Source: a virus. Taken from it: a DNA stretch of 64,000 bases. Made by a program: the position numbers and the translations under genes. Below, piece after piece: positions 750 to 56,726 of the stretch (the first letter of the stretch is position 1; every line of letters starts with the position of its first letter). The notes beneath the pieces are model-generated. The model was not told where the DNA came from. It did not search any database and saw only the letters and a list, made by a program, of their open reading frames with translations. The stretch lies in the IMG/VR virus record IMGVR_UViG_3300020392_000009, positions 27,672 to 91,671 of that record. The stretch is one strand, 5' to 3'.

Positions 750-758
750 TTAACCAAC

Positions 759-1415: not shown

Positions 1416-1417
1416 AT

Positions 1418-2095: not shown

Positions 2096-2098
2096 CTT

Positions 2099-2665
2099 TT
2101 ATTCCTCCAATTCTTTTCTCCAATTTTGAGACTCTCTCATTTCTTCTACTTGTTCGGGTGTAAGATACATAGCAGGGTGAATATTTGCTCCCATCATACC
2201 GAATCTTTCGATTATTTCTTTTTGCTTTTTATTAACAAATTGTTTTACTTGTGGATTTTCTTCAAAGGTCTTTATTTCAAAATGAGGGGGGTCGCCATAT
2301 TGACCCAAAGTATAACCGTAAATAACATTCGTAGGAATATTAAATAAATAATCTTCTCCTAATCTTTCTTTATCTTGTTCATCAATACCAAAATATGTAA
2401 TTGCATCTATGTTAATATCTACGGGGTTTCCGTCAAAATCTTCTCCGCCAAAATCGCCATCTACTAAATCTCTTAATGCCACATCGCCATCAATAGTCAG
2501 TGAATATTCTTTTGACATATATGTAATATATCCTCCAGAATCAAAAAATACCTTACTGTCTTTCCCGTATATTCTTTTGAGTTCGTCTAATATCTCTTTA
2601 GTTAAATCATCAATATATTTTTGAGCCGAAGCCCTATCCATTCTTTTTAATATATCAAACCACAT
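2099..2665 (-). CDS. Hypothetical protein with an N-terminal WxDILK tag
   Basis: Probable ATG at 2665, reading MWFDILKR. Confidence 0.7.
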   Translation of the reverse strand: MWFDILKRMDRASAQKYIDDLTKEILDELKRIYGKDSKVFFDSGGYITYMSKEYSLTIDGDVALRDLVDGDFGGEDFDGNPVDINIDAITYFGIDEQDKERLGEDYLFNIPTNVIYGYTLGQYGDPPHFEIKTFEENPQVKQFVNKKQKEIIERFGMMGANIHPAMYLTPEQVEEMRESQNWRKELEE

Positions 2666-2670
2666 AACAA

Positions 2671-3342: not shown

Positions 3343-3875
3343 CCGAAGTATTTTTCTAATATTTTATCTATATGAAAAATCATTTCATTTTCAGTATCTA
3401 TGTTGATAGGTAAACCAATAGCAGAAGCAATATATGTTGCATTGAGATGAGTTAATCCATCATCAATTTCATCTTTCAAATTAACTATCAATTCCTTAAC
3501 TCTAGAATCAGGTAAATATTTGTAATCTATATTATCAAGAGAAATGCCTCTGGGCATTCCCATTTCTTTTTTGTTTCTTATATTTCTATTATCGGTGTAT
3601 TCTCTATCGCCTTCTAGCCATTTCTCTTTATTTGTTTTCAAGGCTTGCTTTATCATGGGTTTATCTTTTAATTTAATTCTATCACGGGAAGAACCAAAAA
3701 TAGCATAAATTAATGCTTCATCTAAAGAAGGAGTCCAATATTCGGTATCTTCTTTTCCTTGTGTTCCTTGAAATAACTTATTGTAAGTATTAATGTAAGT
3801 TTCTGTTGGGTAATCATTTGAATCAAAAATAGTAGATTGTATTTTGTAAGGTGATTTGAGAATGTCTTTCCACAT
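3339..3875 (-). CDS. WKDILK-tagged protein, possible ADP-ribosyltransferase-like fold
   Basis: Starts MWKDILKS. LFQGT...YWTPSLDEALIYA resembles the ART LYHGT / YxTxxxxxAxxYA pattern. Confidence 0.45.
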   Translation of the reverse strand: MWKDILKSPYKIQSTIFDSNDYPTETYINTYNKLFQGTQGKEDTEYWTPSLDEALIYAIFGSSRDRIKLKDKPMIKQALKTNKEKWLEGDREYTDNRNIRNKKEMGMPRGISLDNIDYKYLPDSRVKELIVNLKDEIDDGLTHLNATYIASAIGLPINIDTENEMIFHIDKILEKYFG

Positions 3876-8469: not shown

Positions 8470-8526
8470 ACCTCTCGTTTTAATGATTTTAAACTTTCAC
8501 TATTTAAAGAACACGGTATTTTCCAT

Positions 8527-11016
8527 TTATTTTGGTATTTTAACAGAATTAAATTTATCTTCGTAAATATCCCAAATACCTTCATCTCCGGCTTTATCGG
8601 CAGGTTTTTGTTTATATCCAGTCCATGCTAGCCACATCTTTTTATCCTCAACAGGTAAATATCTAATATGTAACTTAGTTTCAAATTTGTTACCTTCTAA
8701 GAAATATTCGTGATATCCATTTCGTTGTATTCCTAATTTTATCTTACCGTAATCAATGGTTTTTTTGTTTTGAACATTTTCTGAAACTTCGGCAGGGTAT
8801 TTGCCTGCCGCACCAAATAAATCAAATAGTTCTTTTTCATCATCAACCTCAATAGTCCAGTGTAAATTTTTATCTTTTAATCTAATTGAAAATTGTATAT
8901 TGTTATCTTTTCTAAGCGATATTTTGAATTCGCCCTCTCTATATTTTTCAGGAGTTTCATATTTTTTAATTTCGTCTGCACCAAATTTAAATTCGGGGTC
9001 TGCCTTTATTTTATTGCTCTGTCCTTCTAATATCGGTTCTCGTTGAACAGCCCAATCTCTTAGTTTACTTTGTTTAGCATCTAGTATATCTTGATACAAA
9101 CTTCTATGATTAGTTATTAAGAATTCATGTAGTTGTCGAGTTGTTTGCTCTCCCTTCTTAGTTAGGAATTGATGAATAGCCGCAGTAAGTTCTCCCTGTT
9201 TTGTTTTCATTATCTCTATCGCTTTGCTTTTCCACATATCTAAATCTGCTAAAGCATTCTTTGACATTAAATTGTTTTCTTCAAAGCCATAAAGGGTAAA
9301 ACCATTCATATCATATTTGAGAATAGCAGTAGTTTCTCCATGAACATAATCTGTTACCTTGATTCCTTTTTCCAATGCTGAAACATCATAGTTCAAAGAC
9401 TTCTTTGTGTCTTTAGCAAGCATGGCTAAAGTAACTAATTTATCCGGATATTCTACTTCCGGAACTTCAATTACCTTAGCAGAAAATAAAGAGTAGCCGT
9501 TAGCCGTTTTCTTAACTTCATCTACCTTTACTCTAATTATATCCCCGACATCAACTGCTATCTTAGTGTTTAGTGCTTTGCCTACATCTAGATATCTTAT
9601 ATCGTCTATTTCAACAGTATTAGGTATATCGTCTAATATTGGGCCAACTCCTACACTATAAGAATGCAAGCCACTTTTTGTCTTAGTTTTACTAAGAACT
9701 ACTACATCTAAGTCTACAAACTTTTTCCATTTGACCCATTTAGGGTTCTTTTTAGTTCCCACATAATATATTGAAGTAATGTCTTTTATCATGACTCCTT
9801 CCGCAGTAGGAATATCCATTATGTCTTTAGAGTATTCCGCTACCTCCTTAATTGAATCAGCAAAGCGAGTATCTTTCTTTGAGGGGAAAAGTAGAACATC
9901 AGAAGAGTGCTGTGAATAATTATTAAACAGAGTCCTAATTCTACTATCTAATTCTTCTTCTAATAACATTTGAGAATCATGCCTCATAATATCAAAGACA
10001 TGGGCTTTTAGAGTGGCTTCAGGATATTTATTTTTAAATACATGAGCAATTGTATCAGCCCGATGCAGTGCTTCTTTACCATCAAATAGAATTAGTTCTG
10101 CATCCAAAATACACTCTCCGAAGTGTTTTGCTTTTAATTCTCTAACTATATCTTTACACTTTTCAGTAATGTCTTTTTGATTATATGAGTATATCTTTAT
10201 ATTACCGTCTATTTTATGCAGTTGTATTCTCATACCGTCATACTTTTCTTGAACAATATATTCTCCACTAAATCCTTTTAGTTCGTTCATATCATTTATC
10301 TCAAATATTCTATACATTGGTTTGTTGGGAATAATAAAGTCGCTTTGGGCTTTTTCTGCTTTCTTCATATCAATATCTAAAAGTTCATCCCAATCTTCTT
10401 CACTGTGTTGTGAAAAGTAAATTAACTCTAACATATCCATAGCGGCTTTAACTTTGGATTTGACCTTTTTAGAATCTTTATCATCACCATAGTTTTCTAT
10501 TATGTATAGTGCCACATCATCCGGTTCTAAATCTAGTCCTGCTAGTCCATCGGTCAAAGTATCTTCTTCCATATCTTTTATTTGTAGGGTTTCTTTTCCT
10601 AGTGCATGAGTGTTATCTCTGATAGCATAATGAACAAACTTAACCATAGATTCAGGATTATCTAGTAACTCTTCTAAGACACCTTCTCCAAATCTTTTAG
10701 CAAATGGGTCTATAACGACATCCGATTTATATCTAATAAGTTTAATATCTTCATAAAGTTCTCTTGCTTGAGGAGATGTGGGGTCACTAACATCTTGATG
10801 TTCTAATAGATTCCTTTCTATAAAGTTCTTTAATTCTCTGCCTGCTACATTTAATTTATCATAAGATTCTCTAACTTGCTCTACAGCCTTTCTCCATTTG
10901 TGACCGTATTCTTTAGGGTCACTATTAGCAGATAAAAAGGCCACTCTAGTTATCTCAAATAATTTTACTAACTCTACCGATGAACGCTTGTCTTTTTCAA
11001 AAGAGCCGAGTTTCAA
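8527..11016 (-). CDS. Multidomain ATP-dependent DNA ligase in the head module
   Basis: Motif I QEKYDGMRIQ, ILDAEL, VFDIM, EGVMIK, WVKWK, an OB fold, extra N-terminal helical and C-terminal domains. Confidence 0.85.
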   Translation of the reverse strand: MKLGSFEKDKRSSVELVKLFEITRVAFLSANSDPKEYGHKWRKAVEQVRESYDKLNVAGRELKNFIERNLLEHQDVSDPTSPQARELYEDIKLIRYKSDVVIDPFAKRFGEGVLEELLDNPESMVKFVHYAIRDNTHALGKETLQIKDMEEDTLTDGLAGLDLEPDDVALYIIENYGDDKDSKKVKSKVKAAMDMLELIYFSQHSEEDWDELLDIDMKKAEKAQSDFIIPNKPMYRIFEINDMNELKGFSGEYIVQEKYDGMRIQLHKIDGNIKIYSYNQKDITEKCKDIVRELKAKHFGECILDAELILFDGKEALHRADTIAHVFKNKYPEATLKAHVFDIMRHDSQMLLEEELDSRIRTLFNNYSQHSSDVLLFPSKKDTRFADSIKEVAEYSKDIMDIPTAEGVMIKDITSIYYVGTKKNPKWVKWKKFVDLDVVVLSKTKTKSGLHSYSVGVGPILDDIPNTVEIDDIRYLDVGKALNTKIAVDVGDIIRVKVDEVKKTANGYSLFSAKVIEVPEVEYPDKLVTLAMLAKDTKKSLNYDVSALEKGIKVTDYVHGETTAILKYDMNGFTLYGFEENNLMSKNALADLDMWKSKAIEIMKTKQGELTAAIHQFLTKKGEQTTRQLHEFLITNHRSLYQDILDAKQSKLRDWAVQREPILEGQSNKIKADPEFKFGADEIKKYETPEKYREGEFKISLRKDNNIQFSIRLKDKNLHWTIEVDDEKELFDLFGAAGKYPAEVSENVQNKKTIDYGKIKLGIQRNGYHEYFLEGNKFETKLHIRYLPVEDKKMWLAWTGYKQKPADKAGDEGIWDIYEDKFNSVKIPK

Positions 11017-38938: not shown

Positions 38939-39535
38939 TCACTCATTAGACTCCTCTAATTTGGCATTAGCGGCCTCTTTCTCCTCCTTAGTTGGTGGTG
39001 GGGTCATTTGTGGTAGTTCGTTCTTAATGACCCAATCACCCTTTTTGTCGAGTATTGCTCGACCATCATCAATAGATGACTCCATGTTTCTAACGGCTAC
39101 ATCTACTAGATAGTTGGCAACGGCTTCAAAGTTTGAATAAACTCCACCAGTGCGACCATGAGGTAGATAGTAGTTGCAGAACATAGCCTGTAATTCAGTA
39201 GGGATTGCCAGTAAAGCATTCAAGTATGCTTGGGAAGAAGTAGTCATTGTAACCCTTAGATTTGTAGGGTATTTGTCGTCTCTTCCCATTCTCGCTTTGG
39301 GGAAAGGTGGTGCATCCTCCACTTTGTCATTGAAATACTTACCATTCTTACCAATGGTCTCCCAACAAAGTTTTCTTTCATCATCATCGGCCGTGTCATC
39401 TAGACCCAGTTCAATGTTAGTGGTTATTTGGTTAATCCTCGCCATATTTTTGCGAACACTAGTAACCGAATCCGGTAGAGACTTAATCCAAGCCTCAACC
39501 TTCGCTGTGTTATCCATAAATCTTGCTTCTTGCAT
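38939..39535 (-). CDS. Early-region paralog B
   Basis: Probable ATG at 39535 (MQEARF) after a GGAGTGA RBS. Confidence 0.75.
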   Translation of the reverse strand: MQEARFMDNTAKVEAWIKSLPDSVTSVRKNMARINQITTNIELGLDDTADDDERKLCWETIGKNGKYFNDKVEDAPPFPKARMGRDDKYPTNLRVTMTTSSQAYLNALLAIPTELQAMFCNYYLPHGRTGGVYSNFEAVANYLVDVAVRNMESSIDDGRAILDKKGDWVIKNELPQMTPPPTKEEKEAANAKLEESNE

Positions 39536-39637
39536 TTTTTTCACTCCTATGTTTATGAGTTTGCTTCTTGTTCCCTCTGAAGCACTAATAGTATGAGGGG
39601 TTGCTTTAGGGTTGTCGCTCTCCAAAGTATCGCTATG

Positions 39638-39650
39638 ACCATATGGTTGT
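39638..39650. promoter_or_regulatory. CCATATGG palindromic site, copy 4
   Basis: ACCATATGGTTGT, upstream of paralog B. Confidence 0.5.
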
Positions 39651-39769
39651 GGGAGATAAGTCTCTTTAAACATAGAGATGTCCTAAATCAAATCACCTTA
39701 CCTTCCAAAAATAGGTGTTATTTTCATTCTCTAAATACCAACCTCTTATTGATACTCATTCTCAATTGA

Positions 39770-40170
39770 ACTTATATGAATTAATATTTTATTATTATAT
39801 ATTATATTATTATATAATATAGGATAAATAATCGAGGGTGTTTTTTCTGCTTCCCTTCCTGACAAATCAATCTTTCAAAGTTGGTGGATTCGTCCGGAGG
39901 TCAAAAATAGGCCGGACAGGACATATCAAAAGCATAATGGTATAGTTATGTATCATTATTATATTATTTTAATAATATATCCTATATCCGATACATCCGG
40001 TATAGTATATAGCATTCCTATAGTCAAAAAAACCCTAGAGAGTAGTAGTAGTAGAGAGGGGGGTAAGTCCGGACAGGACAGGACGAAAAATATTGCAGGT
40101 TTGGCCTCATTATGAATAGGTTATGTTGCATAACCCTTCGTCCGGTAATCGGACATATTTTCCGGACACA
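39770..40170. repeat. AT-rich region with CCGG/GGACA repeats at the strand switch; candidate origin or terminus
   Basis: tattat-rich tracts plus gtccgga, gccggacaggaca, gtccggacaggacaggac, gtccggtaatcggaca, tccggaca. Confidence 0.5.
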
Positions 40171-40333
40171 TATCTAAACTGAAGGAATTAGCAATTTTAC
40201 CTTTTGGTTTAGTTTATCTAACGCAATATATTTTAACCGTTTTTATTTTTATCAATAATGCCTGTAATTGATGATAGACGAAATATGTTGATAAATAGCG
40301 TTATTTAAATAGTGGTGGCTTTTATCTCGTTAC

Positions 40334-40834
40334 ATGCCTAAAGTTAAGAATGTCAAAGAGGAGAGAGTTAATAAACAAAGTTCAGAGAATGCCGAATGGG
40401 AATCATTAGTGTATGATGCTAGGGAGTTCATGAAAGATGCTGAACTTCCAAAATCAATCACGAAAATAGTAGAGATGAATATAGAGTTAGGTAATTCTAT
40501 TGTAGAGGAGAGAAATGTCGCTATGAAAAGCATCAAGAATATGCTAAAAAATAGAAATGGGACACCTTTCCGTAGAGGATTGAAGTCAAGGCATCCGGCA
40601 TATGCTAGAATTTCCATAGATGCAATATGCCAAGACGCAACAGATGATTATGCGACCTTCTTCAACAGCAGACCATATTACAAGAATATTCTAAAGAAAC
40701 ATCAAAAGAGTGGCGGTGGTAACTATGATGGTGTAAATGATTTCTCAAGAGTTATGGTAAAGCGTCTAAGGGACACCCTCAACATTATGATAGATGATGG
40801 CGATTGGGATGGTAAAATAGAATCACTTTATTGA
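40334..40834 (+). CDS. Early-region paralog C (divergent)
   Basis: NIELG, PF, GGGNY, IDDG motifs shared with A and B. Confidence 0.7.
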   Translation: MPKVKNVKEERVNKQSSENAEWESLVYDAREFMKDAELPKSITKIVEMNIELGNSIVEERNVAMKSIKNMLKNRNGTPFRRGLKSRHPAYARISIDAICQDATDDYATFFNSRPYYKNILKKHQKSGGGNYDGVNDFSRVMVKRLRDTLNIMIDDGDWDGKIESLY

Positions 40835-44785: not shown

Positions 44786-45430
44786 ATGAATATATTTGCA
44801 TTATCAAGATGTCCCATTGAATCAACTGTTCAAATGATAGACAAACACATAGTTAAGATGCCAACGGAAACTTGCCAAATGCTACATACTAATGCACTAT
44901 TTCAAGAGTTTTCTGATATGTATGGCTACGAACCTAGTCTTGCTAGATTGAAAGAATACCATGAAGAAAGCGGCTCTATTCTAATGAAGCCTGCTATGCT
45001 TAATCACCCTAGCACTATTTGGGCTAGACAAAGTATTCATAACACCCTTTGGCTTTATCAGCATGGTATGGCGCTTTGTGAAGAATATACCTTTAGATAT
45101 GGTAAAGTGCATGGAACTTATAACAGAATGCTACAAACACCTATGGAGTTTGATGCAGATTCTAATTTAGCAACTCCCGTTCATATTGCCATGTTTGATG
45201 TTTACCGATTAGATAGGAACGATTATCTACATTTAAATGACTGGGACTTTGTTATCAAAAGTTATCAGCATTATTATTTAGAAGCAAAATGGTCTTTTGC
45301 TAATTGGAAATCTAGAGATATTCCTAGTTGGTGGCCTAAAGACCACATAGAAAAGAAATATGCCCCTGTTAGAGAGGCATATCAAAGAAAAATAGAAGAA
45401 TACAGGAGGAAAGCACTTGAGAACTTGTGA
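44786..45430 (+). CDS. Pyrimidine-dimer DNA glycosylase / endonuclease V-like protein
   Basis: MNIF...DKHIVKMPTETCQML...NHPSTIWARQS...LCEEYTFRYGKVH. Confidence 0.75.
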   Translation: MNIFALSRCPIESTVQMIDKHIVKMPTETCQMLHTNALFQEFSDMYGYEPSLARLKEYHEESGSILMKPAMLNHPSTIWARQSIHNTLWLYQHGMALCEEYTFRYGKVHGTYNRMLQTPMEFDADSNLATPVHIAMFDVYRLDRNDYLHLNDWDFVIKSYQHYYLEAKWSFANWKSRDIPSWWPKDHIEKKYAPVREAYQRKIEEYRRKALENL

Positions 45431-46000: not shown

Positions 46001-46165
46001 TACAGAAGATTTTGAAGATAACAGGCGACATATTGAGTGTTTGCTTGGTATGGGGGCTAGCCCTACTATTGCTACCCCTCATATTGATTATTGCCCCGTT
46101 CAGCCTTTTGGCCTGAATAGTTTAAATAGTGGAGAGAAAGAAAGAAAAATACAGGAGATGAAAAT

Positions 46166-46372
46166 ATGATTAAGTTAAGAATAATGAATGATACCGGACA
46201 CACAGATTTGATGTTAGAAGCAAGTAGCGTGATTGAGCAGATAGAAACTCACCCTACCCATTGGTGTTTTATTGATGGAGAAATGGTAGCGAGAGAAGAT
46301 ATTGCAGAGATTAACTGGGAAACTGTTGAGACAGTAGACCTAGTAAATGCTATCGTTGGAGGAAACCTTTGA
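46166..46372 (+). CDS. Ubiquitin-like (ThiS/MoaD/SAMP-type beta-grasp) protein
   Basis: 68 aa: MIKLRI...FIDGEMV...VDLVNAIVGG-NL, a diglycine followed by a two-residue extension. Confidence 0.7.
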   Translation: MIKLRIMNDTGHTDLMLEASSVIEQIETHPTHWCFIDGEMVAREDIAEINWETVETVDLVNAIVGGNL

Positions 46373-46398
46373 ATTAGACTATTCGTTCTTTCCCCTTA

Positions 46399-46436
46399 GA
46401 GGGGTAGACTCGTAATGGGGCTTGAGTCTACCCCTC
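46399..46436 (+). terminator. Perfect 13-bp stem-loop after the Ubl gene
   Basis: GAGGGGTAGACTC-12nt-GAGTCTACCCCTC; no clear U-tract. Confidence 0.5.
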
Positions 46437-46626
46437 ACAAAACGATAGGTTTATGTTCCTTATCCTATTCAAAATCAAATATGAATGATGAGCAGATAGT
46501 TGCACAGTCTTTCGAGGAACTAAGAAAGATGATTCATACCGATAGATTAACTCAAAAAGAAGTTGATAGAGGTATGAAGATAATCACAACTTTAGAGAAG
46601 TTGTTTAGATTAAAGGAGGTCTAGTA

Positions 46627-47013
46627 GTGCCTAGCCTCGTTAAAAAATATAATGAAGCACTAGACATAATGCTCTTTATTTTGAAAGACTTTTCAAGCGA
46701 GAGCATTCTTATTATGAAAAATTCAATAAAAGTAATTGAAGAGTTTCATGACATATTCGATACGGATGCTAGTAAAATATCAACGCTACATTATGATTTT
46801 TGTAGACTTGATGAACTATATAAAATTGAAGAAGCGGTTGAAATTGGTTTTAAAAAATTTTTAATTAAAAACATAAAAGAAACTAAAAGCATGCTAGACT
46901 ACCATAACCACAATTGTAAAACTAGTTGTATAATTTGTGAAACAAGGAAAAAAATGGAAGGTGAATTATTTGAAAGAAAAAGACCCAAAATACCAAAAAA
47001 GCACAAGAAATAA
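46627..47013 (+). CDS. Hypothetical protein with a Cys/His cluster
   Basis: HNHNCKTSCIIC. Confidence 0.55.
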   Translation: MPSLVKKYNEALDIMLFILKDFSSESILIMKNSIKVIEEFHDIFDTDASKISTLHYDFCRLDELYKIEEAVEIGFKKFLIKNIKETKSMLDYHNHNCKTSCIICETRKKMEGELFERKRPKIPKKHKK

Positions 47014-47132
47014 GAAAATAGCAACAAGATGTAGAGTTTGTGGTGGCCAACTTACTAACATAATAGAAATAGAAAATGAGTGTCACATAATCTGTGACAA
47101 AGATAATAAAAATGTATATATGATGTGATAAT

Positions 47133-48323
47133 ATGAATGAAGAAAAAGAATACACAATAGAAATAGATATACCCACGCCCGACGACCAACATGAAACTTA
47201 TGGTAAATTTACTATTACTTGGGAAGGTCGCCGCTATGAATGGAATTCCGCCGTATTAAATATTAGAAATGGTGCAAAAGACCCTATTTTTGAATCGGTT
47301 AGAGGATATTTTAAAACCCAACTAGCCAATCTAAAGCATAAAAAAGAAATGTATTTCAGTATAGGTAATGTTCCTGTTCTATTAGAATATTCGTCTAGAT
47401 ACTACATGAACGGTAAAGCGGTTAGTTTCAATCATATGCTTAGTGTTCTTGCTAGAGTGGCATTAAAGTCTGTTTGGACTGATGATAAATTACAATTACA
47501 AAGAACCCTACTTAAGACTCTAAATGTATCAGAGGACATTAGATATGTTTTAGAAAACAGAATGCCATATAATTTTTACAAAGACTTTGATAAAGTAGAA
47601 GTTAGGTTGAATGTTCAACAAATAGGCTCTGACGAATATGCCGTAGAGGTTAGTGATGGAATTTGGGGAACTATGAAAGGTAAAGATATTAACTCCTTTT
47701 GTTCCTTTTTCTTACATGGTAAAAAAACAGGAAAGTGGAAATTTTGTTCGCCTAATAGATTATTCGTAGAGACTGTTGGCCGTAAACCAACCCCTTCCGA
47801 AATAGAATTGATGATTCCTTTTCTAGAGCAAAATAGGACTGCTGATTTGATTGAGAAGAGAGCGCAAGAATTAGTTCAAGATATGGTAAAACAATTCTCT
47901 AATAGAATTACCCTCATCTACAAAGAGTCTAGAAAATTAGACGGCATGGTGGTTAGAGGAAAGGGCTATGATTGGTTTATTAGAGATAATGGAACTAGAA
48001 GCGGAACACAAAGAGTTTCTACTTATGTTTTATCTTCTAAGACAGAAGTTCAATATCATGGCGATGATGATGATGTTGGAGTAGAAATAGAATCTAATGA
48101 TTGGAGAGGGCCAATTTGTATAGATAATATGTCTAATAATGCCCCATTAGGCGACCAAATGTGTGCTAGGGCGTTTGCCGCACTCAATGATATCATGATG
48201 ATAAAAAGAGTAAGCACCATTAAAGGCTACATTAACAATATTGAGCCTAATACAGTTAGGTTAGATGATTTTGTTTTTGAGCAGGAGAGATTAGATGACA
48301 AGAAATTACACTTATATTTGTGA
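47133..48323 (+). CDS. Hypothetical protein with a C-terminal GPICID Cys motif (E2-like candidate)
   Basis: 396 aa; NDWRGPICIDN resembles the E2 GxICL active-site loop. Confidence 0.55.
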   Translation: MNEEKEYTIEIDIPTPDDQHETYGKFTITWEGRRYEWNSAVLNIRNGAKDPIFESVRGYFKTQLANLKHKKEMYFSIGNVPVLLEYSSRYYMNGKAVSFNHMLSVLARVALKSVWTDDKLQLQRTLLKTLNVSEDIRYVLENRMPYNFYKDFDKVEVRLNVQQIGSDEYAVEVSDGIWGTMKGKDINSFCSFFLHGKKTGKWKFCSPNRLFVETVGRKPTPSEIELMIPFLEQNRTADLIEKRAQELVQDMVKQFSNRITLIYKESRKLDGMVVRGKGYDWFIRDNGTRSGTQRVSTYVLSSKTEVQYHGDDDDVGVEIESNDWRGPICIDNMSNNAPLGDQMCARAFAALNDIMMIKRVSTIKGYINNIEPNTVRLDDFVFEQERLDDKKLHLYL

Positions 48324-49155
48324 AGAGTGTTCTAGTAAATCAGTATCCTTTAACGAAAGACTAGGAGAAATGACCTGCGATGAATGTGGTTTAGTTATAA
48401 TAACCGAACTCTTTGAAGAAACGGTTCTTCCTGTTGATAAGAAAGGTAATTTTGTTCATTCTCCGGATAGAGGTAAATTAGGCTCTGTGATTAACGGTAA
48501 ATTAGGTAAAGTAGCAAAACACCACCATGTTAAATCTAATTACTCTTCCTACATCATGAGAGGATTATCTTTTTGTAAAATACTTCTAGCGAACTTTACT
48601 TCTAGTAGTTCAATAAGAGATAGATGCGAAGAGATATACATTACGCTATATCGAAAAAACATTATCAATAGGTCATCTTACGAGGATAGAGCCTGTGCAA
48701 TTGTATATTACTGTCTATTAGAAAATAATACGCCTGTAAAATATGCAGATGTTTGCTCGATAGAGTTTCAAAACGATAAGTCTAAAGTAATTAAATTAGT
48801 TAAGAAAATCAAAAAGACCTTTGGTAAAGTGACTAGACCAATAGACTACCGCTATGAAATAGAAAGAGTAGCAGTTCAAGTTCTAAACAATATAGGATTT
48901 GTTCAACAATGCTTAGATATACATGATTATTTTCAACCAATAATAAACGAAAGTAATTACAATATTCCTACTACCTATCCTGTGGCAATTGCTTGGATAG
49001 CGACTAATGTTAATTGTAGAACCGATGTAACGGCTAGTAAGATAAGTAGGAATTGTAGTGTATCTAGGTGGTCTATTAGAAACACAACTAATAGACTATT
49101 AGAATTAATAGGAAAAGAAGAAATAAAACAAATAAGAGGAAAGGAATTAAAATGA
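48295..49155 (+). CDS. tfb: Transcription factor B (TFIIB) homolog
   Basis: N-terminal Zn ribbon CEEC...GEMTCDECGLVI, then two cyclin-like repeats. Confidence 0.8.
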   Translation: MTRNYTYICEECSSKSVSFNERLGEMTCDECGLVIITELFEETVLPVDKKGNFVHSPDRGKLGSVINGKLGKVAKHHHVKSNYSSYIMRGLSFCKILLANFTSSSSIRDRCEEIYITLYRKNIINRSSYEDRACAIVYYCLLENNTPVKYADVCSIEFQNDKSKVIKLVKKIKKTFGKVTRPIDYRYEIERVAVQVLNNIGFVQQCLDIHDYFQPIINESNYNIPTTYPVAIAWIATNVNCRTDVTASKISRNCSVSRWSIRNTTNRLLELIGKEEIKQIRGKELK

Positions 49156-49352
49156 TAAATGAAGAATGGATTGAATACTATGTGTATTTAGAAGAATTAC
49201 GACAAAGTGGAGTAACCAATATGTTTGGTTCTGCTCCATATTTGAGAGAGGAGTTCGGCTTAGGCCGAAGAGAATCAATAAAGATTGTAGCAAACTGGAT
49301 GGATAACTACGAAGAATTGATAGAGAAAGGAATAATTAGTAGAGGTGAATAA
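49152..49352 (+). CDS. Small conserved viral protein
   Basis: YLEELRQSGVTNMFGSAPYL. Confidence 0.65.
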   Translation: MINEEWIEYYVYLEELRQSGVTNMFGSAPYLREEFGLGRRESIKIVANWMDNYEELIEKGIISRGE

Positions 49353-49743
49353 TATGAAAAATTTGATTGACCCTAAGACAAAAGCGAAGATGTTGAAAGA
49401 ACAGTTTGATGTTAAAACATATTGTGGAATAGCAGATGCTCATGGTTTAGAGTCTTTCATGGAATGCGAGGGCATTGGATATGCTCCAATGACCATTACT
49501 ATGAGAGCAAGGCTAAATAGACAAAGACACGCTATGGTTTATTGGGTAGAATTACCCGATAACAAGGCAGAACAAATGAACGAAGCAATAGAGCAAGCGC
49601 AAAAAGATAACAATTGGCACACGCCATTGTTACTACTAAAGAATCCCGACTTTGTTGAGAATGTATCATTTGAAAATTCTATGAAAAGTAGTTGGGATAT
49701 GTTACCTAATGACAAACTAGACCCATATTGGGGGGGACAGTAA
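49345..49743 (+). CDS. Hypothetical protein
   Basis: YCGIADAHGLESF; 132 aa. Confidence 0.65.
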   Translation: MNNMKNLIDPKTKAKMLKEQFDVKTYCGIADAHGLESFMECEGIGYAPMTITMRARLNRQRHAMVYWVELPDNKAEQMNEAIEQAQKDNNWHTPLLLLKNPDFVENVSFENSMKSSWDMLPNDKLDPYWGGQ

Positions 49744-49957
49744 TGAAAGACAAATTACAATACCCAACAATAGCAATACAACTAGTAAATCCACAAGGTA
49801 TGCCTTATGATATGCCGGATGATTGGATAGAAACCGTTCTTTCTATTGCGGCTATAATTAATGATAAGTATAAGATTGGCGTTGATACAGTCTTTGGAAC
49901 AGCATCAAGAGAAGGATTTGAAATATTAAGTAAAGAATGTAGTAAAGAGGAATAAAA

Positions 49958-50218
49958 ATGTTAAGGAATAAAGATGGAAAATTGTATGTAGGAGATAAAG
50001 AAGTTATCAAAGGCTACGAATCATTTAGTGGTTGGTATTGGTTTGTAACTGAAATAGAAGAAGAGGATTATGGAGGACATCCTCTATACTTTGGATATGT
50101 TCAAGGCTTTGAAAATGAATGGGGAACATTTTGGCATGGAGAACTACAACCGCTAATTGAACAAGGTAGAGTTTGGGAGATTAATGAAGTTGATTTACCA
50201 TATGCAGGGAGGAGATAA
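49958..50218 (+). CDS. DUF2958-like protein
   Basis: GWYWFVTE...FGYVQGFENEWGTF...EL. Confidence 0.6.
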   Translation: MLRNKDGKLYVGDKEVIKGYESFSGWYWFVTEIEEEDYGGHPLYFGYVQGFENEWGTFWHGELQPLIEQGRVWEINEVDLPYAGRR

Positions 50219-50219
50219 A

Positions 50220-50777
50220 ATGAAAAGAAAAGTATTAGTAATTGGAGCAGGAGGTATTGGGAGTTTCTTGATACCTCTTTTAGATAAAGTAGGATTGTAT
50301 GACATAACGGTGGCAGACCCCGATAAAGTAGAAACGAAGAACCTACCTTATCAAAATTTTACAGAATCTCTAGTAGGAAAGAATAAAGCAGTTGTTATGG
50401 GTCATTATAAATCCGTATCTAATAGTATTGTTTATCCTATTCTAACTGAAAAACAAATGAAAGGTTATGACTTGGTTATTTGTTGTGTAGACAATTTAGG
50501 CCTTAGAAGGACAATGTATAACACAAAGATTAAGTGGTTAGACTTGCGGGCGCAAGGCAGGAATGCCGCACTTGTGAGCCATAAAGCCGACATTAAGATG
50601 TATGAAAGTTTATTGGCAGGTAAAGATGGGTCATTCTCTTGTCAAGGAGATTCTTGGGATGGGAGTAACAAAGGAGTTCATTTTATGCAAGTTGCTATCG
50701 CAGGAATGGGCGCACAATGGATTCAAAGATACTTCAATGATGAAGAAGTATGTGACTTTAAGGTGGTGAATGTATGA
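50220..50777 (+). CDS. ThiF/MoeB/E1-like adenylating enzyme
   Basis: VLVIGAGGIGS, DPDKVETKNLPYQ, GKNKA, CCVDN; probable ATG at 50220. Confidence 0.88.
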   Translation: MKRKVLVIGAGGIGSFLIPLLDKVGLYDITVADPDKVETKNLPYQNFTESLVGKNKAVVMGHYKSVSNSIVYPILTEKQMKGYDLVICCVDNLGLRRTMYNTKIKWLDLRAQGRNAALVSHKADIKMYESLLAGKDGSFSCQGDSWDGSNKGVHFMQVAIAGMGAQWIQRYFNDEEVCDFKVVNV

Positions 50778-51295
50778 GTAAAATAAAGGATAAGTATTTT
50801 GATAAAATAAATAATGATGATAATTCGTATGAGCAGTGGATGGAAGAACTAAAGGAAAAGAGATTCTTGGCCGAGAGGCATATCATAGATAACTATGATA
50901 AGTCAAAAAACATTAAAGAATTGTTTGAACCTATTTGGTATGCTTCTACTAAGATTCTGCCTCATCTAGAAGTTCAAGTTGTTATTGATGCTAATAGAGA
51001 TATCCATGTTTCAACCGGAACAGCAGGATATGTAGACTTTCAAATAAATCCTGTTGGTATGAAACTACCTGTTGAATGTTGGATACATACTCATCCTTTC
51101 GCTGTTGCTTATTTTAGTGGAACAGATATAGGGACTGTTAGAGTTTGGCAACCCATTATGAAAGAAGCCTATGTATTAGGTGGAGTGGAACATTATGGTC
51201 ATTGGACTCAAGATAGACCTAATGCACTAGATATTTTTCATAACAACGAATATGAAGAAACACAAGTTTGGAATAGAAGAGGTGAAGAAGAATGA
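50774..51295 (+). CDS. JAB/MPN+ metalloprotease (deubiquitinase-like)
   Basis: LEV...WIHTHPFAVAYFSGTD matches E...HxH-x7-S-x2-D. Confidence 0.85.
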   Translation: MSKIKDKYFDKINNDDNSYEQWMEELKEKRFLAERHIIDNYDKSKNIKELFEPIWYASTKILPHLEVQVVIDANRDIHVSTGTAGYVDFQINPVGMKLPVECWIHTHPFAVAYFSGTDIGTVRVWQPIMKEAYVLGGVEHYGHWTQDRPNALDIFHNNEYEETQVWNRRGEEE

Positions 51296-51522
51296 AAGCA
51301 TATGGAGATTGGGTTGTTCTAGAAAGAACAACAAAGAAACTAACAAGTGGATTAATGATTGATGCAGGTAATGTTGGATTAGTAGTAGATTCAGCAGATA
51401 AGAAAATCATAGGAAAGCGTGTTTTGTTTTCTCAAAAGCATGAACAACATACCTATGGTGATTATTTCATGGTTCACAAAAATGCGGTAATGGCAATAAT
51501 ACAGGAAAAGGATGACGAATGA
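51292..51522 (+). CDS. groES: Co-chaperonin GroES-like protein
   Basis: MKAYGDWVVLE...TSGLMI...VLF...VMAII, directly upstream of GroEL. Confidence 0.75.
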   Translation: MKAYGDWVVLERTTKKLTSGLMIDAGNVGLVVDSADKKIIGKRVLFSQKHEQHTYGDYFMVHKNAVMAIIQEKDDE

Positions 51523-53042
51523 TAATTAAAGGAACAGAAGTGAAAGAAAAACTATTGAAGGGAATAGATATTGTAGCAGAGACAGTAAAGCCTACACTTG
51601 GCCCACAAGCGAGAACAGTAATATTACAAGGTAATCCTCCGATAGTAATTAACGACGGAGTTACAATTACTAGATATATTAGTCATGAAGACCCTTATAT
51701 TCAAATGGGTATTCAATTGGTGCAAAATCTAGCAAGTAAAGCACAAGAGGGTAGTGGTGATGGAACTACTACTGCTTGTATTCTTGCTCAAGCATTATGT
51801 CATAATATGCTAGATGCACCGGAAATGAATGTTCATCAGTTTAATAGTCTAATTGAAGCACTAAAGGTTCTTACGATTCAATATTTGAATGATGAAGCGC
51901 AAGAAGTTGAGGATATAGATATACTTGGCGTGGCAACAATAGCCGCTAATAATGATAGTGAAATGGGTTCACTTATTAATGAAGCAGTGGGTATGGTTGG
52001 AAGAAGCGGAATAATAACAGTAGAGGAATCTAATTCTTACAAAACAGAATTAGTGCTACGAGAAGGATTAGAAATTAATGAGGGATATCTAAGTCATCTA
52101 ATGTGTAATACAGATGGTGGAAAGGTGGTATATGAGAACCCTATAATCTTCTTATCTAATTTATCCTTCAACGCTTTCAAAGACTTAATACCTATGTTAG
52201 AGTATGCTAGTCAAGCAGGTAGGCCACTTCTAATCCTATGCAAAGGACTAGAAAGTTCAGCCATGAATAATCTACTTATGAATATCATAAATAATACAGT
52301 TCAATGTTCAGCAATACTAGCACCTAACTTTGGTGATGAGCAGTTGGATGAACTTCTAGACTTACAAACAGTAGTCGGAGGAAAGGTGTTTGCTTCAGAA
52401 GTAAAAGACGACCCTACCATATTTGTTGATGAGTCTTTTGGAAGTTGTGAACGGGTAGTTATAACAAAAGAAAAAACTACCTTTATCGGAACTAGCGGGA
52501 CAGAAGAAGCCGTTGAAAATAGAATTCAAGAACTGGCCAAAACTCTAGAGGAAATAAAGGGACATAGAGCCGCTAGACTAAAGAGCAGAATTGCTAGGCT
52601 TAAGGGAGGCATCGCTACCATTAAGGTTGGCGCTTCTTCATCTATTGAAATGAGGGAAAAGAAAGAAAGATTAGACGATGCTCTTAACGCTACAAAGGCC
52701 GCATTAGAAGAAGGCATTATTGTCGGTGGTGGATTAACTCTAGCAAGAGCCGCTAAGAAAGCGGCAAAGGGAATAAAACACAGCGATTGGTTTTATTCTG
52801 CTATGCAAGAACCAATTAAAGTATTACAAACAAATAGCGGTATAACTACACCAAATATTAGTTTTGATAAAATGAAAACGAGGAACATAGGTTTCAATGC
52901 TCTAACAGGTAAAACTCAAGACTTGAAAGCGGCAGGTATTTTCGACCCCGTTAAAGTCACCAAAAATAGTTTCTTAGCGGCTATGTCAATAGCACAATTG
53001 TTCTATTCAACAGATGTAGCAGTCCTGTTACCGGAGGAATAA
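51519..53042 (+). CDS. groEL: Group I chaperonin GroEL
   Basis: VKPTLGP, NDGVTI, GDGTTTA, APNFGD, DALNATKAALEEGIIVGGG, GIFDPVKV. Confidence 0.93.
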   Translation: MIIKGTEVKEKLLKGIDIVAETVKPTLGPQARTVILQGNPPIVINDGVTITRYISHEDPYIQMGIQLVQNLASKAQEGSGDGTTTACILAQALCHNMLDAPEMNVHQFNSLIEALKVLTIQYLNDEAQEVEDIDILGVATIAANNDSEMGSLINEAVGMVGRSGIITVEESNSYKTELVLREGLEINEGYLSHLMCNTDGGKVVYENPIIFLSNLSFNAFKDLIPMLEYASQAGRPLLILCKGLESSAMNNLLMNIINNTVQCSAILAPNFGDEQLDELLDLQTVVGGKVFASEVKDDPTIFVDESFGSCERVVITKEKTTFIGTSGTEEAVENRIQELAKTLEEIKGHRAARLKSRIARLKGGIATIKVGASSSIEMREKKERLDDALNATKAALEEGIIVGGGLTLARAAKKAAKGIKHSDWFYSAMQEPIKVLQTNSGITTPNISFDKMKTRNIGFNALTGKTQDLKAAGIFDPVKVTKNSFLAAMSIAQLFYSTDVAVLLPEE

Positions 53043-53243: not shown

Positions 53244-53900
53244 ATGAAATATAATAGTTTCAAGAAACAAAGAAAATCTAAAAAATCTAAGAAATCTAAA
53301 AAGAATGCTTGGACTCCTTTGGTTAGATTTGAACTAACAAACGAATATTTCCCCAATGTTGATGTAAGCAGTTTAGAATATGATGAGTATTGGTGTAATG
53401 ATGAATATATCGTTAAGGTATATTATCCGAATAATCCTGCTCATCAATTCTCAAATAACAAGTTTACATGGTTATGTTTTAGAAATGTTAGAAATACTCA
53501 TACTGCTCACGATTGGCGAGATATGCAAATGATGAAAAATCAAATATGCGGTGAAGAAAGAACCGCAGTAGAGGTTTTTCCTCCTATGAGTAAACTAGTT
53601 GATACCTGTAATCAGTTTCATATGTGGGTTTATCCCGAAGACTACAAGTTGGATTTTGGATATAACGAACAATCTATTATGCCCAACACTACAATTGCTA
53701 AAGAGGCCTTCAATAATAGTATGAATAAGGCAATAAAAGAGGCTAAAACGGAAGAAGAAAAAAGATACTTACTTTCAACAAAACATCGTGTAGAAGTAGA
53801 CCCTACACATGGAAAGCAAAGAGCCATGCCCGAACATTTTCTATCGCCCGAACTGATGGATAAGTTAGGATATAGATATGAGAGGGGTGATGATAAATGA
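53244..53900 (+). CDS. Conserved viral hypothetical protein
   Basis: DWRDMQMMKNQICGEERTAVEVFPP...NQFHMW. Confidence 0.65.
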   Translation: MKYNSFKKQRKSKKSKKSKKNAWTPLVRFELTNEYFPNVDVSSLEYDEYWCNDEYIVKVYYPNNPAHQFSNNKFTWLCFRNVRNTHTAHDWRDMQMMKNQICGEERTAVEVFPPMSKLVDTCNQFHMWVYPEDYKLDFGYNEQSIMPNTTIAKEAFNNSMNKAIKEAKTEEEKRYLLSTKHRVEVDPTHGKQRAMPEHFLSPELMDKLGYRYERGDDK

Positions 53901-54854: not shown

Positions 54855-55194
54855 TAAATTATATTTAATATGCAATAACAATAAGAAATTTGACAACTGG
54901 ACTTTAAAGTTCAAGAAAAAACTAACTGGTCTAGCATTAGACCATTTCAATCAAGGATGGATTGATGTAAGAAAAGGCAACTACTTAGCAAGAGCAATTT
55001 TTGTGTGCTACTGGGAAATTTATGCTAATGGTAATTTAGCAAAAGTAAGTCCTGCTATTACTCAAGCCACCTTAGTTCATTTAATGCACCGATTTCTAGA
55101 ACAGGAAAGATTTGAAGAAGTTGAATTAATTCAGCATATGATGACTAATTTCCTAAGACTATTGACTGTAGTAGAACAGGAGGAAGAAGAGTGA
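54835..55194 (+). CDS. Hypothetical protein
   Basis: 119 aa, coupled. Confidence 0.6.
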   Translation: MRTMDFNKLYLICNNNKKFDNWTLKFKKKLTGLALDHFNQGWIDVRKGNYLARAIFVCYWEIYANGNLAKVSPAITQATLVHLMHRFLEQERFEEVELIQHMMTNFLRLLTVVEQEEEE

Positions 55195-56726
55195 CTGATA
55201 AATGGATAACAGTTTGCAGGTTATTAGAACAAACAGAAAAAATATTTCCCTCGACTCAAGTAGTATTAGTATCAAGACAACTATCTCACTTCGATAACAA
55301 GGTGAATTTGTTTAAATTACTCTCTCTAGAATTACAAGAAAACAATATAGGTAAGGCCAAAGCAGAATTGTGGGCATCTAAAATATTTGATTTGTTTCCT
55401 GAAGAAGTTGCTAATGCAGTTTCTAATTATGGAGATATAGGTAGTGCTATCTATTTCTTAGAGATATCTAAGAAAGCATCAGATTTTACTTTGAAACAAA
55501 TCTTAGATGTTCTTCAACTAGATTGTGCAAAAGCCTCCGGTTCTACCTTTAAGTTGATTAAAGAAATGGTAACTAAAATGTCCGACATAGAAAGAAAGTG
55601 GTTCTTCAGATTCTTAGTTAGAAAGACTAGAAATAATATGGGAGAAGGACAACTGAAAAAGATATTAGCAAAGCATTACAAATTAAAAACAAAAGATGTA
55701 AAATCTCATTTAAACTTCAACTCATTCTCTGATGTTGTGATGTATTATGAAATGAATGAAACCCCCCCAATGAATTTATCACACGGTTCTTTTGTAAAAC
55801 CAATGTTAGCGAAAGATGTCCCTATGAATAAGTGGCCGGAGAATAAGATTGTAGACTACAAGTATGATGGTAATAGATACCAAATACACAAAGAAGGAGA
55901 TAATGTAATTATCTTCAATCGTAAGGGTTCTATTGTCACACCACAGTTTCAAGATGTTGTGGAGCGAGTTAGAAAGTATGATGTAGATTGCATTCTTGAT
56001 GGTGAGATATATCCAATTAATGATGATGGTTCACCTGCTGAACACAAACTAATGGGAACAAGAGTTCATTCTAAAGACCATGCAGAAGCAAGAGAAAGAG
56101 TCAAAGTTAAGTGGGTTATATTTGATTGCCTCAAGATGGGAGATGAGACTATTATGGATTTAGAGTATCTTAGTAGATTACAATATATGAAAAAATTACC
56201 TGACCAAGCACATAGAATGAAAGAGGGCGGTGATGTTCTAGCATTCTATAATAGAGCGATTAACGATGGTTTTGAGGGCATTATTGTTAAGGATGCTACC
56301 TTACCCTATGAGGCAGGTAAAAGAAGCGTGGGATGGGCTAAATACAAGCCTCCTCGCATTGAATTAGATGTGGCTATTATAGCGGCTAAATATGGTCAAG
56401 GTGATAAGTGTGATGTCTTTGCTTCATTCAACATAGGAGTAAAAACAGATGTAGACTTTCATCCGGTTGGATGGGTTGGAACAGGATTTTCGGACGATGA
56501 ATTGTATGAATTAACTAAGTCTTTACGAAAAAATGTGGAGTATTTTTCCGGTGGAATTTACAAATTGCTTCCAAGAACAGTTTTAGAAGTTTCAGCAGAT
56601 TTAGTGTCAATGGATGAAAAAGGAAACTATGGTCTTAGATTCCCTAGATGTAAAAGAATTAGAGAAGATAAATTCGTAGCAGACACAAATACTCTAGATG
56701 ACATAATTAGATTATATTCCGAATAA
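55191..56726 (+). CDS. lig: ATP-dependent DNA ligase (replication module)
   Basis: KPMLA, YKYDGNR, ILDGEI, IFDCL, EGIIVK, WAKYK, VGTGFSD, LRFPR. Confidence 0.93.
   Translation: MTDKWITVCRLLEQTEKIFPSTQVVLVSRQLSHFDNKVNLFKLLSLELQENNIGKAKAELWASKIFDLFPEEVANAVSNYGDIGSAIYFLEISKKASDFTLKQILDVLQLDCAKASGSTFKLIKEMVTKMSDIERKWFFRFLVRKTRNNMGEGQLKKILAKHYKLKTKDVKSHLNFNSFSDVVMYYEMNETPPMNLSHGSFVKPMLAKDVPMNKWPENKIVDYKYDGNRYQIHKEGDNVIIFNRKGSIVTPQFQDVVERVRKYDVDCILDGEIYPINDDGSPAEHKLMGTRVHSKDHAEARERVKVKWVIFDCLKMGDETIMDLEYLSRLQYMKKLPDQAHRMKEGGDVLAFYNRAINDGFEGIIVKDATLPYEAGKRSVGWAKYKPPRIELDVAIIAAKYGQGDKCDVFASFNIGVKTDVDFHPVGWVGTGFSDDELYELTKSLRKNVEYFSGGIYKLLPRTVLEVSADLVSMDEKGNYGLRFPRCKRIREDKFVADTNTLDDIIRLYSE

Follow-up and report, generated by a model that had tools for sequence, protein, structure and literature searches.

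Ubiquitin-like protein (Ubl) conjugation serves in prokaryotes as archaeal housekeeping, with the SAMP modifiers, and since 2023 has also been recognized in bacterial anti-phage defence, in the CBASS Cap2, Bil, and Bub systems. In the BilABCD operons, Type I and Type II, the Ubl is BilA, the E2 is BilB, the JAB protease is BilC, and the E1 is BilD (PMC10557695). Eukaryote-like operons with genes for ubiquitin, E1, E2, RING, and Rpn11 proteins occur in Caldiarchaeum and in Asgard archaea (PMC3082918, PMC5654768). For viruses, a 2006 survey of prokaryotic Ubl systems listed phages only with an E1-less tail-assembly Ubl/JAB pair (PMC1779556), and a preprint on Asgard viruses described E1 (ThiF) homologs only, with no full kit, and proposed that they hijack the host system (10.1101/2021.07.29.454249). 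Here we analyse a 64,000-nucleotide stretch (the window) of the virus record IMGVR_UViG_3300020392_000009, in which four genes encode a Ubl, a minimal E1, a JAB/JAMM protease, and a 396-residue E2-like candidate. In this kit the machinery is owned by the virus itself.

We consider it probable that the virus encodes its own Ubl conjugation pathway. The support in hand consists of the genes, their motifs, predicted folds, strict co-occurrence, and a related phage operon, and from these we infer the chemical steps, the roles of the Cys residues, the direction of transfer, and the targets. An earlier note on this DNA, made from the letters of the sequence, had proposed a self-contained protein-tagging pathway; the motifs, predicted folds, co-occurrence, phage operons, and lack of a sulfur-transfer partner all support that proposal.

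Results

A set of four genes in a magrovirus genome

The virus record comprises 91,671 bases (91.7 kb) and is rated 99% complete; the window covers its bases 27672-91671. We assign the genome to the magroviruses, viruses of Marine Group II archaea (PMC5434244), because a homolog of the Ubl in NCBI is gp024 of 'Poseidoniales virus YSH_150918'. Magroviruses are reported to be among the most abundant marine viruses, outranked only by SAR11 phages and cyanophages (PMC5434244). All four open reading frames (ORFs) that the earlier note had picked out are present:

46166..46372, plus strand: Ubl precursor of 68 aa ending VGG-NL, with an invariant VGG and a beta-grasp model
47133..48323, plus strand: 396-aa E2-like candidate, identified by homolog alignment, structure model, and VIA matches
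50220..50777, plus strand: minimal E1-like adenylating enzyme of 185 aa, identified by Pfam ThiF
50774..51295, plus strand: JAB/JAMM (MPN+) metalloprotease of 173 aa with an invariant zinc-site motif

The ubiquitin-like protein

The Ubl ORF terminates in IVGG-NL, as the earlier note had read it, and has 46 full-length homolog clusters. That note had asked whether the GG is conserved among homologs. The VGG is invariant in 27 aligned sequences and is followed either by two residues that nearly always differ or by a stop exactly at GG. The tails after GG hold 0, 1, or 2 hypervariable residues, in more than 20 different versions; in 15 of the 46 database clusters nothing follows GG. The mature Ubl is predicted to end at G66. 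A reading modelled on MccB, with chemistry at a C-terminal Asn, was dropped because the residues after GG are not conserved. The Ubl gene is single-copy in the virus, no second Ubl was found genome-wide, and a search for longer or fused forms saw none, which is weak evidence.

An AlphaFold2 (AF2) model built from 21 sequences, phage relatives included, supports the beta-grasp assignment of the earlier note. The model (pLDDT 87, pTM 0.72) follows the beta-grasp order beta-beta-alpha-beta-beta-(alpha)-beta, with a disordered tail of pLDDT <50. The top 50 Foldseek matches in the PDB are all ubiquitin, NEDD8, SUMO, or ISG15 (prob 0.90-0.99, E 5e-3 to 2e-2). VIA-align agrees on the fold and places MoaD first (Z 5.3, 22% identity), followed by 8tyz_B (Z 5.2), which is BilA, the Ubl chain of a bacterial E1-E2-Ubl complex, and by MOCS2A and ISG15 (Z 5.0); the VIA list (Z 4.2-5.3) also includes ThiS, CysO, SAMP1, and the Caldiarchaeum Ubl 5zew_A. 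A profile of the Ubl family gave no match among PDB sequences. A relationship to the T4 PinA inhibitor was set aside because the Pfam score, 20 bits, lies below the cut-off of 27.

Since these matches span the ubiquitin family, MoaD, and BilA, the fold cannot separate a protein modifier from a sulfur carrier. As a sulfur carrier, the trimmed and adenylated Ubl would be converted to a C-terminal thiocarboxylate, and the sulfur would pass to a cofactor, tRNA, or DNA through host enzymes. MoaD as the top VIA match, with ThiS and CysO in the same list, fits this explanation, as does the known chemistry of such carriers: a JAMM protease trims a carrier with two residues after GG in the thioquinolobactin pathway (QbsE/QbsD), and a JAMM also acts in CysO/Mec+ cysteine synthesis. 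The Foldseek neighbours nearest to the Ubl, which are ubiquitin, NEDD8, and SUMO, speak for a modifier instead.

The minimal E1 and the search for sulfur-transfer partners

The ThiF/E1 assignment of the ORF at 50220-50777 is borne out by Pfam ThiF (PF00899; E 9.8e-17, 61.3 bits, cut-off 28.1). Homologs use the ATG at 50220 as their start, the 185 residues form a single adenylation (ThiF) domain, and the gene is the sole ThiF gene in the genome. The motifs that it has in common with its phage relatives are GAGGIGS (invariant), DxDxV, K56, D84, D91-N92, R96, and W-x-D-L-R, together with the invariant family signature KNLPYQNF. S140-C141-Q142, 49 residues past D91-N92, is invariant in the archaeal-virus and phage forms, and we take the position of C141, for which no alignment covers that half of the protein, to correspond approximately to that of the crossover-loop Cys of ThiF, MoeB, and E1 enzymes. 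From its conservation and position, C141 is a candidate for the E1 catalytic Cys.

The E1 profile matched ThiF-type proteins, UBA5, Uba1, NAE, MccB, Cap2, Uba4, MoeB, and ThiF in the PDB. Compared with the models of specific equivalogs (ThiF, MoeB, UbaA, Cap2, and PRTRC-ThiF) the enzyme scored far below every cut-off, the best NCBIfam matches being the ThiF and MoeB models. More than 1,800 sequence clusters of this mini-E1 are present in public data. The ThiF genes of the cultured jumbo phages Bacillus WH1 and Acinetobacter ME3 occur in a different gene context.

That the best NCBIfam models are those of ThiF and MoeB is again what a sulfur-carrier pathway would predict, while the scores against specific sulfur-pathway models, far below their cut-offs, and the lack of a rhodanese domain in the E1 are not. 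The earlier note had found no sulfur-transfer partner enzyme in the window, and this observation extends to the whole 99%-complete genome. Searches for rhodanese (PF00581), cysteine desulfurase (PF00266), PP-loop (PF01171; TtuA/NcsA/TilS type), and phosphoadenosine phosphosulfate (PAPS) reductase (PF01507) genes returned none genome-wide with positive controls, ThiG, MoaE, and CysM being unsearched. In addition, a conserved partner of predicted E2-like fold with an invariant Cys, described below, has no role in sulfur-carrier pathways. Because the partner genes are absent from the genome we lower our estimate for a sulfur carrier, for which host enzymes could still serve, and regard it as improbable.

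The JAB protease

The JAB start overlaps the E1 stop by 4 nt. The intact HxH-x7-S-x2-D motif reported for this ORF is H105-x-H107-x7-S115-x2-D118, invariant in 14 homologs, as is the upstream E66. In a profile search of the PDB with the family, AMSH-LP matched across the motif (E 1.9e-4), and AMSH, Sst2, and Rpn11 matched more weakly. As a single sequence the window JAB falls below the Pfam Prok-JAB gathering score (16 bits against 25), while counterparts from the phage operons described below pass it with 30.9 and 30.2 bits. BLAST gave no match between the window JAB and the phage JAB, and a MAFFT alignment misplaced the phage JABs.

The JAB is predicted to trim the Ubl tail. It is also kept where the Ubl already ends at GG (L030, L047, and the phage-like L067), and none is found in the phage-like L068 operon. 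A presence that is independent of the Ubl tail fits a second role as a deconjugating enzyme, and the JAB probably removes conjugates as well.

The same retention of the JAB where no trimming is needed could point to counter-defence, in which the kit would serve mainly to defeat an antiviral or proteolytic system of the host based on Ubl/SAMP: the JAB would take host tags off viral proteins, with the viral Ubl and E1 as decoy or competitor in place of productive tagging. Bil, CBASS Cap2/Cap3, and Bub act in anti-phage immunity (PMC10557695, PMC11601596), and archaeal Borg elements encode numerous AMSH-like putative deSAMPylases, which have been interpreted as possibly answering a SAMP-based defence (PMC12660748). 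A decoy, however, needs neither an intact E1 nor an E2-like partner, E1 and Ubl are the most conserved proteins of the block, and one phage lineage keeps the Ubl, E1, and partner protein with no JAB in the operon. We judge counter-defence very improbable as the main function.

The 396-residue protein

The 396-aa protein carries the GPICID motif pointed out in the earlier note. Its Cys329 and the surrounding W-x-G-P-I-C-I-D-N are invariant over 27 divergent homologs of 28-43% identity, in which a hypervariable insert of widely varying length lies directly upstream. In sequence space the protein is isolated: it has no match in Pfam, PHROGs, PADLOC, NCBIfam, the ESM Atlas, or, as a profile, PDB sequences, and Foldseek against BFVD with its model returned three orthologs only. 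The profile of the 27 homologs recovered 194 clusters among 1.8 billion representative proteins. Ten distant clusters were sampled, and their longest contigs were of viral size (<=105 kb), so that no sequence relatives of the family outside viral-size contigs have been seen so far.

The AF2 model of the protein is multi-domain (pLDDT 81), with alpha/beta domains over residues 1-230 and a domain resembling E2/UBC proteins at residues ~234-381. The suggestion that E2 folds should be compared with this protein proved fruitful for its C-terminal domain. In a wide VIA search with residues 234-381, most of the 50 rows were E2, UEV, or RWD domains or complexes containing them; the best match was UBE2S (Z 5.8, 104 aa, root-mean-square deviation 3.9), UBE2F, FANCL, Ubc9, and Ubc13 were also among the best, and the bacterial CdnG-E2 and a Bub complex chain matched at Z 4.3. 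The weight of this fold evidence lies in the consistency of the list. In the model, Cys329 falls after the last strand (316-328) and before the helix that follows it (339-351), where the active site of an E2 would be expected from the order of secondary structure elements.

These matches have to be weighed against E2-independent conjugation in the style of SAMPylation, TtuB, or Urm1, in which the E1 alone would activate the Ubl and drive its attachment to lysines. The 396-aa protein would then not carry a thioester; it would be a scaffold, an adaptor for substrates, or the main target, with an RWD/UEV-like domain that only binds the Ubl or E1. Non-catalytic UEV and RWD domains do match at the same Z as true E2s, the protein has neither an HPN motif nor an E2 sequence signal, and the mini-E1, like UbaA or MoeB, consists of one ThiF domain, with no domain for E2 docking. 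Invariance of Cys329 and its motif across the 27 divergent homologs speaks against this explanation, as does a similar Cys motif at the end of the partner protein in phage operons, where the partner gene is coupled to the Ubl gene by an overlap or a spacing of ~20 nt. E2-independent conjugation thus appears unlikely.

Linkage of the genes in magroviruses

Linkage was surveyed on ~72 viral contigs with a relative of the E1, and counts were limited to loci with enough flanking sequence. The Ubl was found in 38/38 magrovirus loci, the E2-like gene in 46/46, and the JAB in 64/64, in the same gene order, so the co-occurrence that the earlier note had wanted checked holds throughout. Linkage of the kit is far beyond chance. 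Co-occurrence inside one syntenic virus family is weak evidence when taken alone; it gains weight because the E1 and Ubl are the most conserved proteins in the block and because phages carry a related compact operon. Median identities in the block are 77% for the E1, 70% for the Ubl, 61% for GroEL, 53% for the JAB, 39% for the E2-like protein, and 36% for a TFB-like protein.

A contig scan with the E1 motifs returned four loci, three on magrovirus-like contigs binned in bacterial metagenome-assembled genomes (MAGs) and one on a phage-like Bacteroidales contig. The three former (L213-L215) are more divergent, with E1 identities of 54-58%, and contain the E2-like protein, E1, and JAB; the Ubl was found in L214 only and a GroEL-type chaperonin in two of the three. 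The contigs are 12-43 kb long, L213 and L215 coming from the MAG 'Maricaulis sp. IN14' and L214 from the MAG 'Altibacter sp. EAC109'. They look like archaeal-virus contigs of a deeper magrovirus-like lineage that were mis-binned in bacterial genomes.

Related operons in phages

In three bacteriophage-like lineages, homologous Ubl and mini-E1 genes form a tight operon with the gene for a large protein that carries a Cys motif; a JAB gene is present in two of the three. The order is large protein, Ubl-GG, JAB (two of the three lineages), and mini-E1, with overlapping stops and starts; the ends of the large-protein and Ubl genes overlap in L068 and L216 and are ~20 nt apart in L067 and L069. The components are:

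L067 and L069: large protein 718-720 aa; Ubl 86-88 aa, ending LVGG; JAB 161 aa; mini-E1 200-201 aa
L216: large protein 723 aa; Ubl 75 aa, ending LVGG-N; JAB 155 aa; mini-E1 196 aa
L068: large protein 647 aa; Ubl 69 aa, ending TLGG; no JAB; mini-E1 201 aa

The phage Ubls are homologous to the window Ubl (E 3e-6), with an end-to-end alignment on GG. The phage E1s are 30-36% identical to the window E1 and share its KNLPYQNF and SCQ signatures, and the L067 JAB is above the Prok-JAB threshold. The large proteins (650-720 aa) end in Y-P-S-G-x-Y-[IVL]-C-[IM]-V-D-K ... R-[LVM]-[YF]-A-L-x-N-D, which lines up with GPICIDN ... ARALALLND of the 396-aa family. In an hmmsearch with that family, the large proteins of L216 and L067/L069/L071 ranked as the top 4 of 523 ORFs, with those of L068/L070 lower (E 7.5); BLAST of the 396-aa protein against the 718-aa phage protein gave no match. 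The two families are likely homologous, judging from the shared end motif and this ranking.

All three phage lineages have a sigma-70 family gene (Pfam Sigma70_r2/r4) downstream of the mini-E1, at a distance of 0.25-1.9 kb:

L067, 8834-9637: sigma-70 family gene
L068, 9390-10190: sigma-70 family gene
L216, 9456-10253: sigma-70 family gene

A DNA polymerase I-type or ribonucleotide reductase gene is present in the two phage lineages that were checked. In two lineages the mini-E1 is directly followed by a gene for a conserved 77-79-aa C-x-x-C protein (L067 8594-8833; L069 8591-8830; L216 7585-7818) that had no Pfam match and may be a fifth component of the phage kit. On L216, a phage-like contig of 204 kb from the Bacteroidales MAG, a 1210-aa ORF at 67-3699 stands beside the Ubl operon and by eye looks like a ribonucleotide reductase with homing-endonuclease or intein-like inserts.

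Gene layout, promoter, and neighbours

The minus strand of the window holds a tailed-virus morphogenesis module (SU10-type capsid protein, prohead protease, portal, and terminase) and the plus strand an archaeal-type replication module (ATP-dependent ligase, RFC, and UvrD-type helicase). The kit belongs to the replication and transcription module in magroviruses. Around its four genes the following features were annotated:

46121..46128, plus strand: TATA-box-like element, TTTAAATA, 38-45 nt 5' of the Ubl start codon
46399..46436, plus strand: perfect 14-bp hairpin directly after the Ubl stop, spanning the start of the next ORF
48295..49155, plus strand: TFB/TFIIB-like protein, by a just sub-threshold TFIIB Zn-ribbon Pfam match and weak PDB matches
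51292..51522, plus strand: small protein of 76 aa, conserved upstream of GroEL, with 4-nt overlaps
51519..53042, plus strand: GroEL-type chaperonin, by Pfam Cpn60 and PHROG chaperonin groEL

Ten genes run in one direction with overlaps or gaps <=2 nt from the E2-like gene to GroEL (47133-53042), which suggests that they form one transcription unit. The Ubl gene lies 0.76 kb upstream of this block as a unit of its own. The TATA-like box in front of it is probably the gene's own promoter: of 37 distinct magrovirus loci, 25 have a TTTAWATA-type box at 42-49 nt upstream of the Ubl start, and near variants occur in most of the others. In the window the octamer TTTAWATA is strongly under-represented, with 10 copies where shuffles have 28 +/- 5.5; its copies lie at 2741, 8501, 10033, 32595, 40302/40304, 46121, 46817, 58190, and 59910. 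Other copies are located upstream of the protease/capsid genes (8501-8508, minus strand) and of the first rightward gene (40304), and together the copies could serve as a promoter map of the virus. The hairpin after the Ubl stop (RNA fold -26.5 kcal/mol, z -3.3 against shuffles) is possibly a terminator or stabiliser. A separate box and hairpin for the Ubl, with the enzymes in another unit, would fit a tag made in bulk and enzymes made in small amounts.

The TFB-like gene overlaps the end of the E2-like gene by 29 nt and always lies between the E2-like gene and the E1 in magrovirus loci. Its TFIIB Zn-ribbon Pfam match (E 3.6e-6) is slightly under the cut-off, and the weak PDB matches are to the TFIIB ribbon and core. 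JAB, 76-aa protein, and GroEL genes are chained by 4-nt overlaps, and GroEL is well defined by Pfam Cpn60 (E 8e-44) and PHROG chaperonin groEL (E 8e-110). The 76-aa protein (51292-51522) is kept directly upstream of GroEL in magroviruses; the earlier note had called it GroES, a name that is not supported, as neither Pfam nor a 15-sequence family profile against the PDB gave a Cpn10 match. The magrovirus paper took the co-chaperonin to be non-encoded (PMC5434244). The TFB-like protein, the 76-aa protein, and GroEL are neighbours of the kit rather than established members of the pathway.

Several observations concern the rest of the window. The region is flanked at 44786-45430 and 53244-53900 by genes for a homolog of pyrimidine-dimer DNA glycosylases (Pyr_excise, E 1.2e-6) and for a DUF7694 protein. 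Two proteins with ATP-dependent DNA ligase domains are encoded at 8527-11016 (minus strand) and 55191-56726 (plus strand), one a canonical ligase of 511 aa with N, M, and C domains and the other of 829 aa with the adenylation domain at residues 246-431. GC and AT skew change sign at ~39-40 kb (39000-40400), at the switch from leftward structural to rightward replication genes, and a palindromic pair of TATA-like boxes lies at 40302-40311.

Discussion

On the conjugation pathway that we favour, the Ubl gene would be transcribed from a promoter of its own and yield a precursor with the end VGG-NL, from which the JAMM protease would cut the last two residues so that Gly66 is exposed. With ATP, the minimal ThiF-type E1 would adenylate Gly66 and probably receive the Ubl on Cys141 as a thioester; this enzyme is probably a homodimer, as MoeB and UbaA are. 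The Ubl would then pass to Cys329 in the UBC-like domain at the C terminus of the 396-aa protein, whose N-terminal part and hypervariable insert would pick the substrate in place of an E3. The Ubl would finally be placed on lysines of viral or host proteins in the early or replication phase, and the JAB can probably also reverse the mark.

A number of findings weigh against this pathway. Its support is computational. The combination of a Ubl with GG and tail, a JAMM, and an E1 is also found in sulfur-carrier pathways (QbsE/QbsD/QbsC and CysO/Mec+/MoeZ). The mini-E1 lacks a UFD or CYS domain for docking an E2, and within KNLPYQNF it has Tyr at the conserved Arg of the (S)NLxRQ motif of E1, ThiF, and MoeB proteins, for which the best PDB match, 9egb, reads SNLNRQN; Lys also replaces the Ser of this ATP-phosphate motif. 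For the 396-aa protein, the E2-like fold match is moderate (Z 4-5.8), and VIA's own note is that Z <8 can reflect a generic arrangement. The sequence upstream of Cys329 is W-x-G-P, with no HPN motif, there is no UQ_con or Prok-E2 signal (UQ_con was without a match genome-wide at E <=1), and Foldseek against the PDB with the whole model gave nothing below 1e-3. The relationship of the 396-aa family to the phage large proteins is weak by profile (hhalign E 0.035, prob 1.5%; hmmsearch E 0.16-0.55). Finally, the magrovirus kit genes are dispersed over at least 5 kb and form no single tight operon.

The kit stands beside the virus's own transcription initiation factor in both domains, which could reflect early-module synteny or a functional link. 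If the link is functional, tailed viruses of archaea and bacteria may run a private Ubl pathway as a takeover tool on host transcription-initiation or defence proteins. The Ubl, produced from one of the few consensus TATA promoters, would be attached by the E2-like protein to host proteins, which the mark would inactivate or direct to the proteasome. Such a role would explain the position of the kit beside a TFB-like gene in magroviruses and beside a sigma-70 gene in three phage lineages. We regard it as speculative and rather unlikely; if true, it would be the first prokaryotic-virus counterpart of ubiquitin hijacking by eukaryotic viruses.

We found no paper in the literature that describes the magrovirus Ubl kit. 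The main text of the magrovirus papers searched does not mention ThiF, JAB, or ubiquitin, and a comparative jumbo-phage review does not describe phage E1 or Ubl kits. With a 68-aa tag, a 185-aa E1, and a 173-aa protease, the kit is among the most compact candidate systems of E1, E2, and deubiquitinase, and would be easy to reconstitute. The identity of the targets would reveal how an uncultured, globally important archaeal virus controls its host, and whether viruses and hosts fight with the same modification chemistry.

Comparison with known systems

The kit would work most like Bil. Both have four parts, with a beta-grasp Ubl that carries a conserved C-terminal Gly and a short variable tail, a JAMM that trims the tail or, in the virus, is predicted to do so, an E1, and a UBC-fold E2 or, in the virus, a candidate E2-like protein, and both are without an E3. 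BilB likewise has a variable insert ahead of its catalytic Cys motif, proposed there to serve in target choice (PMC10557695), the Bil gene order of Ubl, E2, DUB (deubiquitinase), and E1 is nearly that of the phage operons (partner, Ubl, JAB, and E1), and the viral Ubl has the BilA chain 8tyz_B among its best fold matches. The kit nevertheless falls outside Bil in E1 architecture, sequence, and virus encoding. [quoted passage not shown] Against defence models the Ubl and E2-like protein gave no sequence match, and the E1 matched generic E1-E2 models only. The viral E2-like domain makes up the C-terminal third of a protein that has 396 aa here and 650-720 aa in phages, the kit genes are dispersed in magroviruses, and the kit is encoded by viruses (a 99%-complete genome and phage-like contigs), while Bil is a host-encoded operon for defence.

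The archaeal SAMP/UbaA/HvJAMM1 system resembles the kit in its host domain, in a small GG-ending beta-grasp modifier, in a single-domain ThiF-type E1, and in a JAMM protease, which in SAMPylation removes the modifier (PMC4443979, PMC4895103, PMC2948915), and SAMP1 is in the VIA match list of the Ubl. The earlier note had called the pathway SAMPylation-like. Its protein-tagging sense stands, but the label is imprecise, since SAMPylation needs no E2 and the viral partner of predicted E2-like fold, with its invariant Cys, is conserved and always present. The E1 scored 29.2 bits with the UbaA model NF047750 (cut-off 450); the desampylase model NF041370 gave no match to the window JAB and 39.9 to a phage JAB, against a cut-off of 130. 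UbaA and the SAMPs have a further function in sulfur transfer, and no partner gene for this was seen in the virus.

Sulfur-carrier systems (QbsE/QbsD/QbsC, CysO/Mec+/MoeZ, ThiS/ThiF, and MoaD/MoeB; PMC1779556) share a GG beta-grasp carrier and a ThiF-type adenylating enzyme with the kit. They differ from the virus in that it has no rhodanese domain or gene and no desulfurase, and does have the protein of predicted E2-like fold. The closest parallel for the tail is QbsE, in which two residues after GG are removed by a JAMM. The Caldiarchaeum and Asgard systems are alike in the ubiquitin-type fold (5zew_A is listed among the matches), in the AMSH/Rpn11-type JAMM matches, and in the UBC-like fold; the viral kit differs in lacking a RING E3 (the genome was searched) and a UQ_con signal, and in its minimal E1. 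Among tailed phages, the Lambda/T1 TAPI Ubl with the JAB-NlpC protein TAPK (PMC1779556) is the only such Ubl/JAB pairing that we found in the literature, and it differs in having no E1 and no E2-like partner and in its location in the tail module. Taken with these systems, the kit most likely represents a new form of Ubl conjugation that belongs to viruses; it combines a minimal E1 with an E2-like family and is neither Bil nor SAMP.

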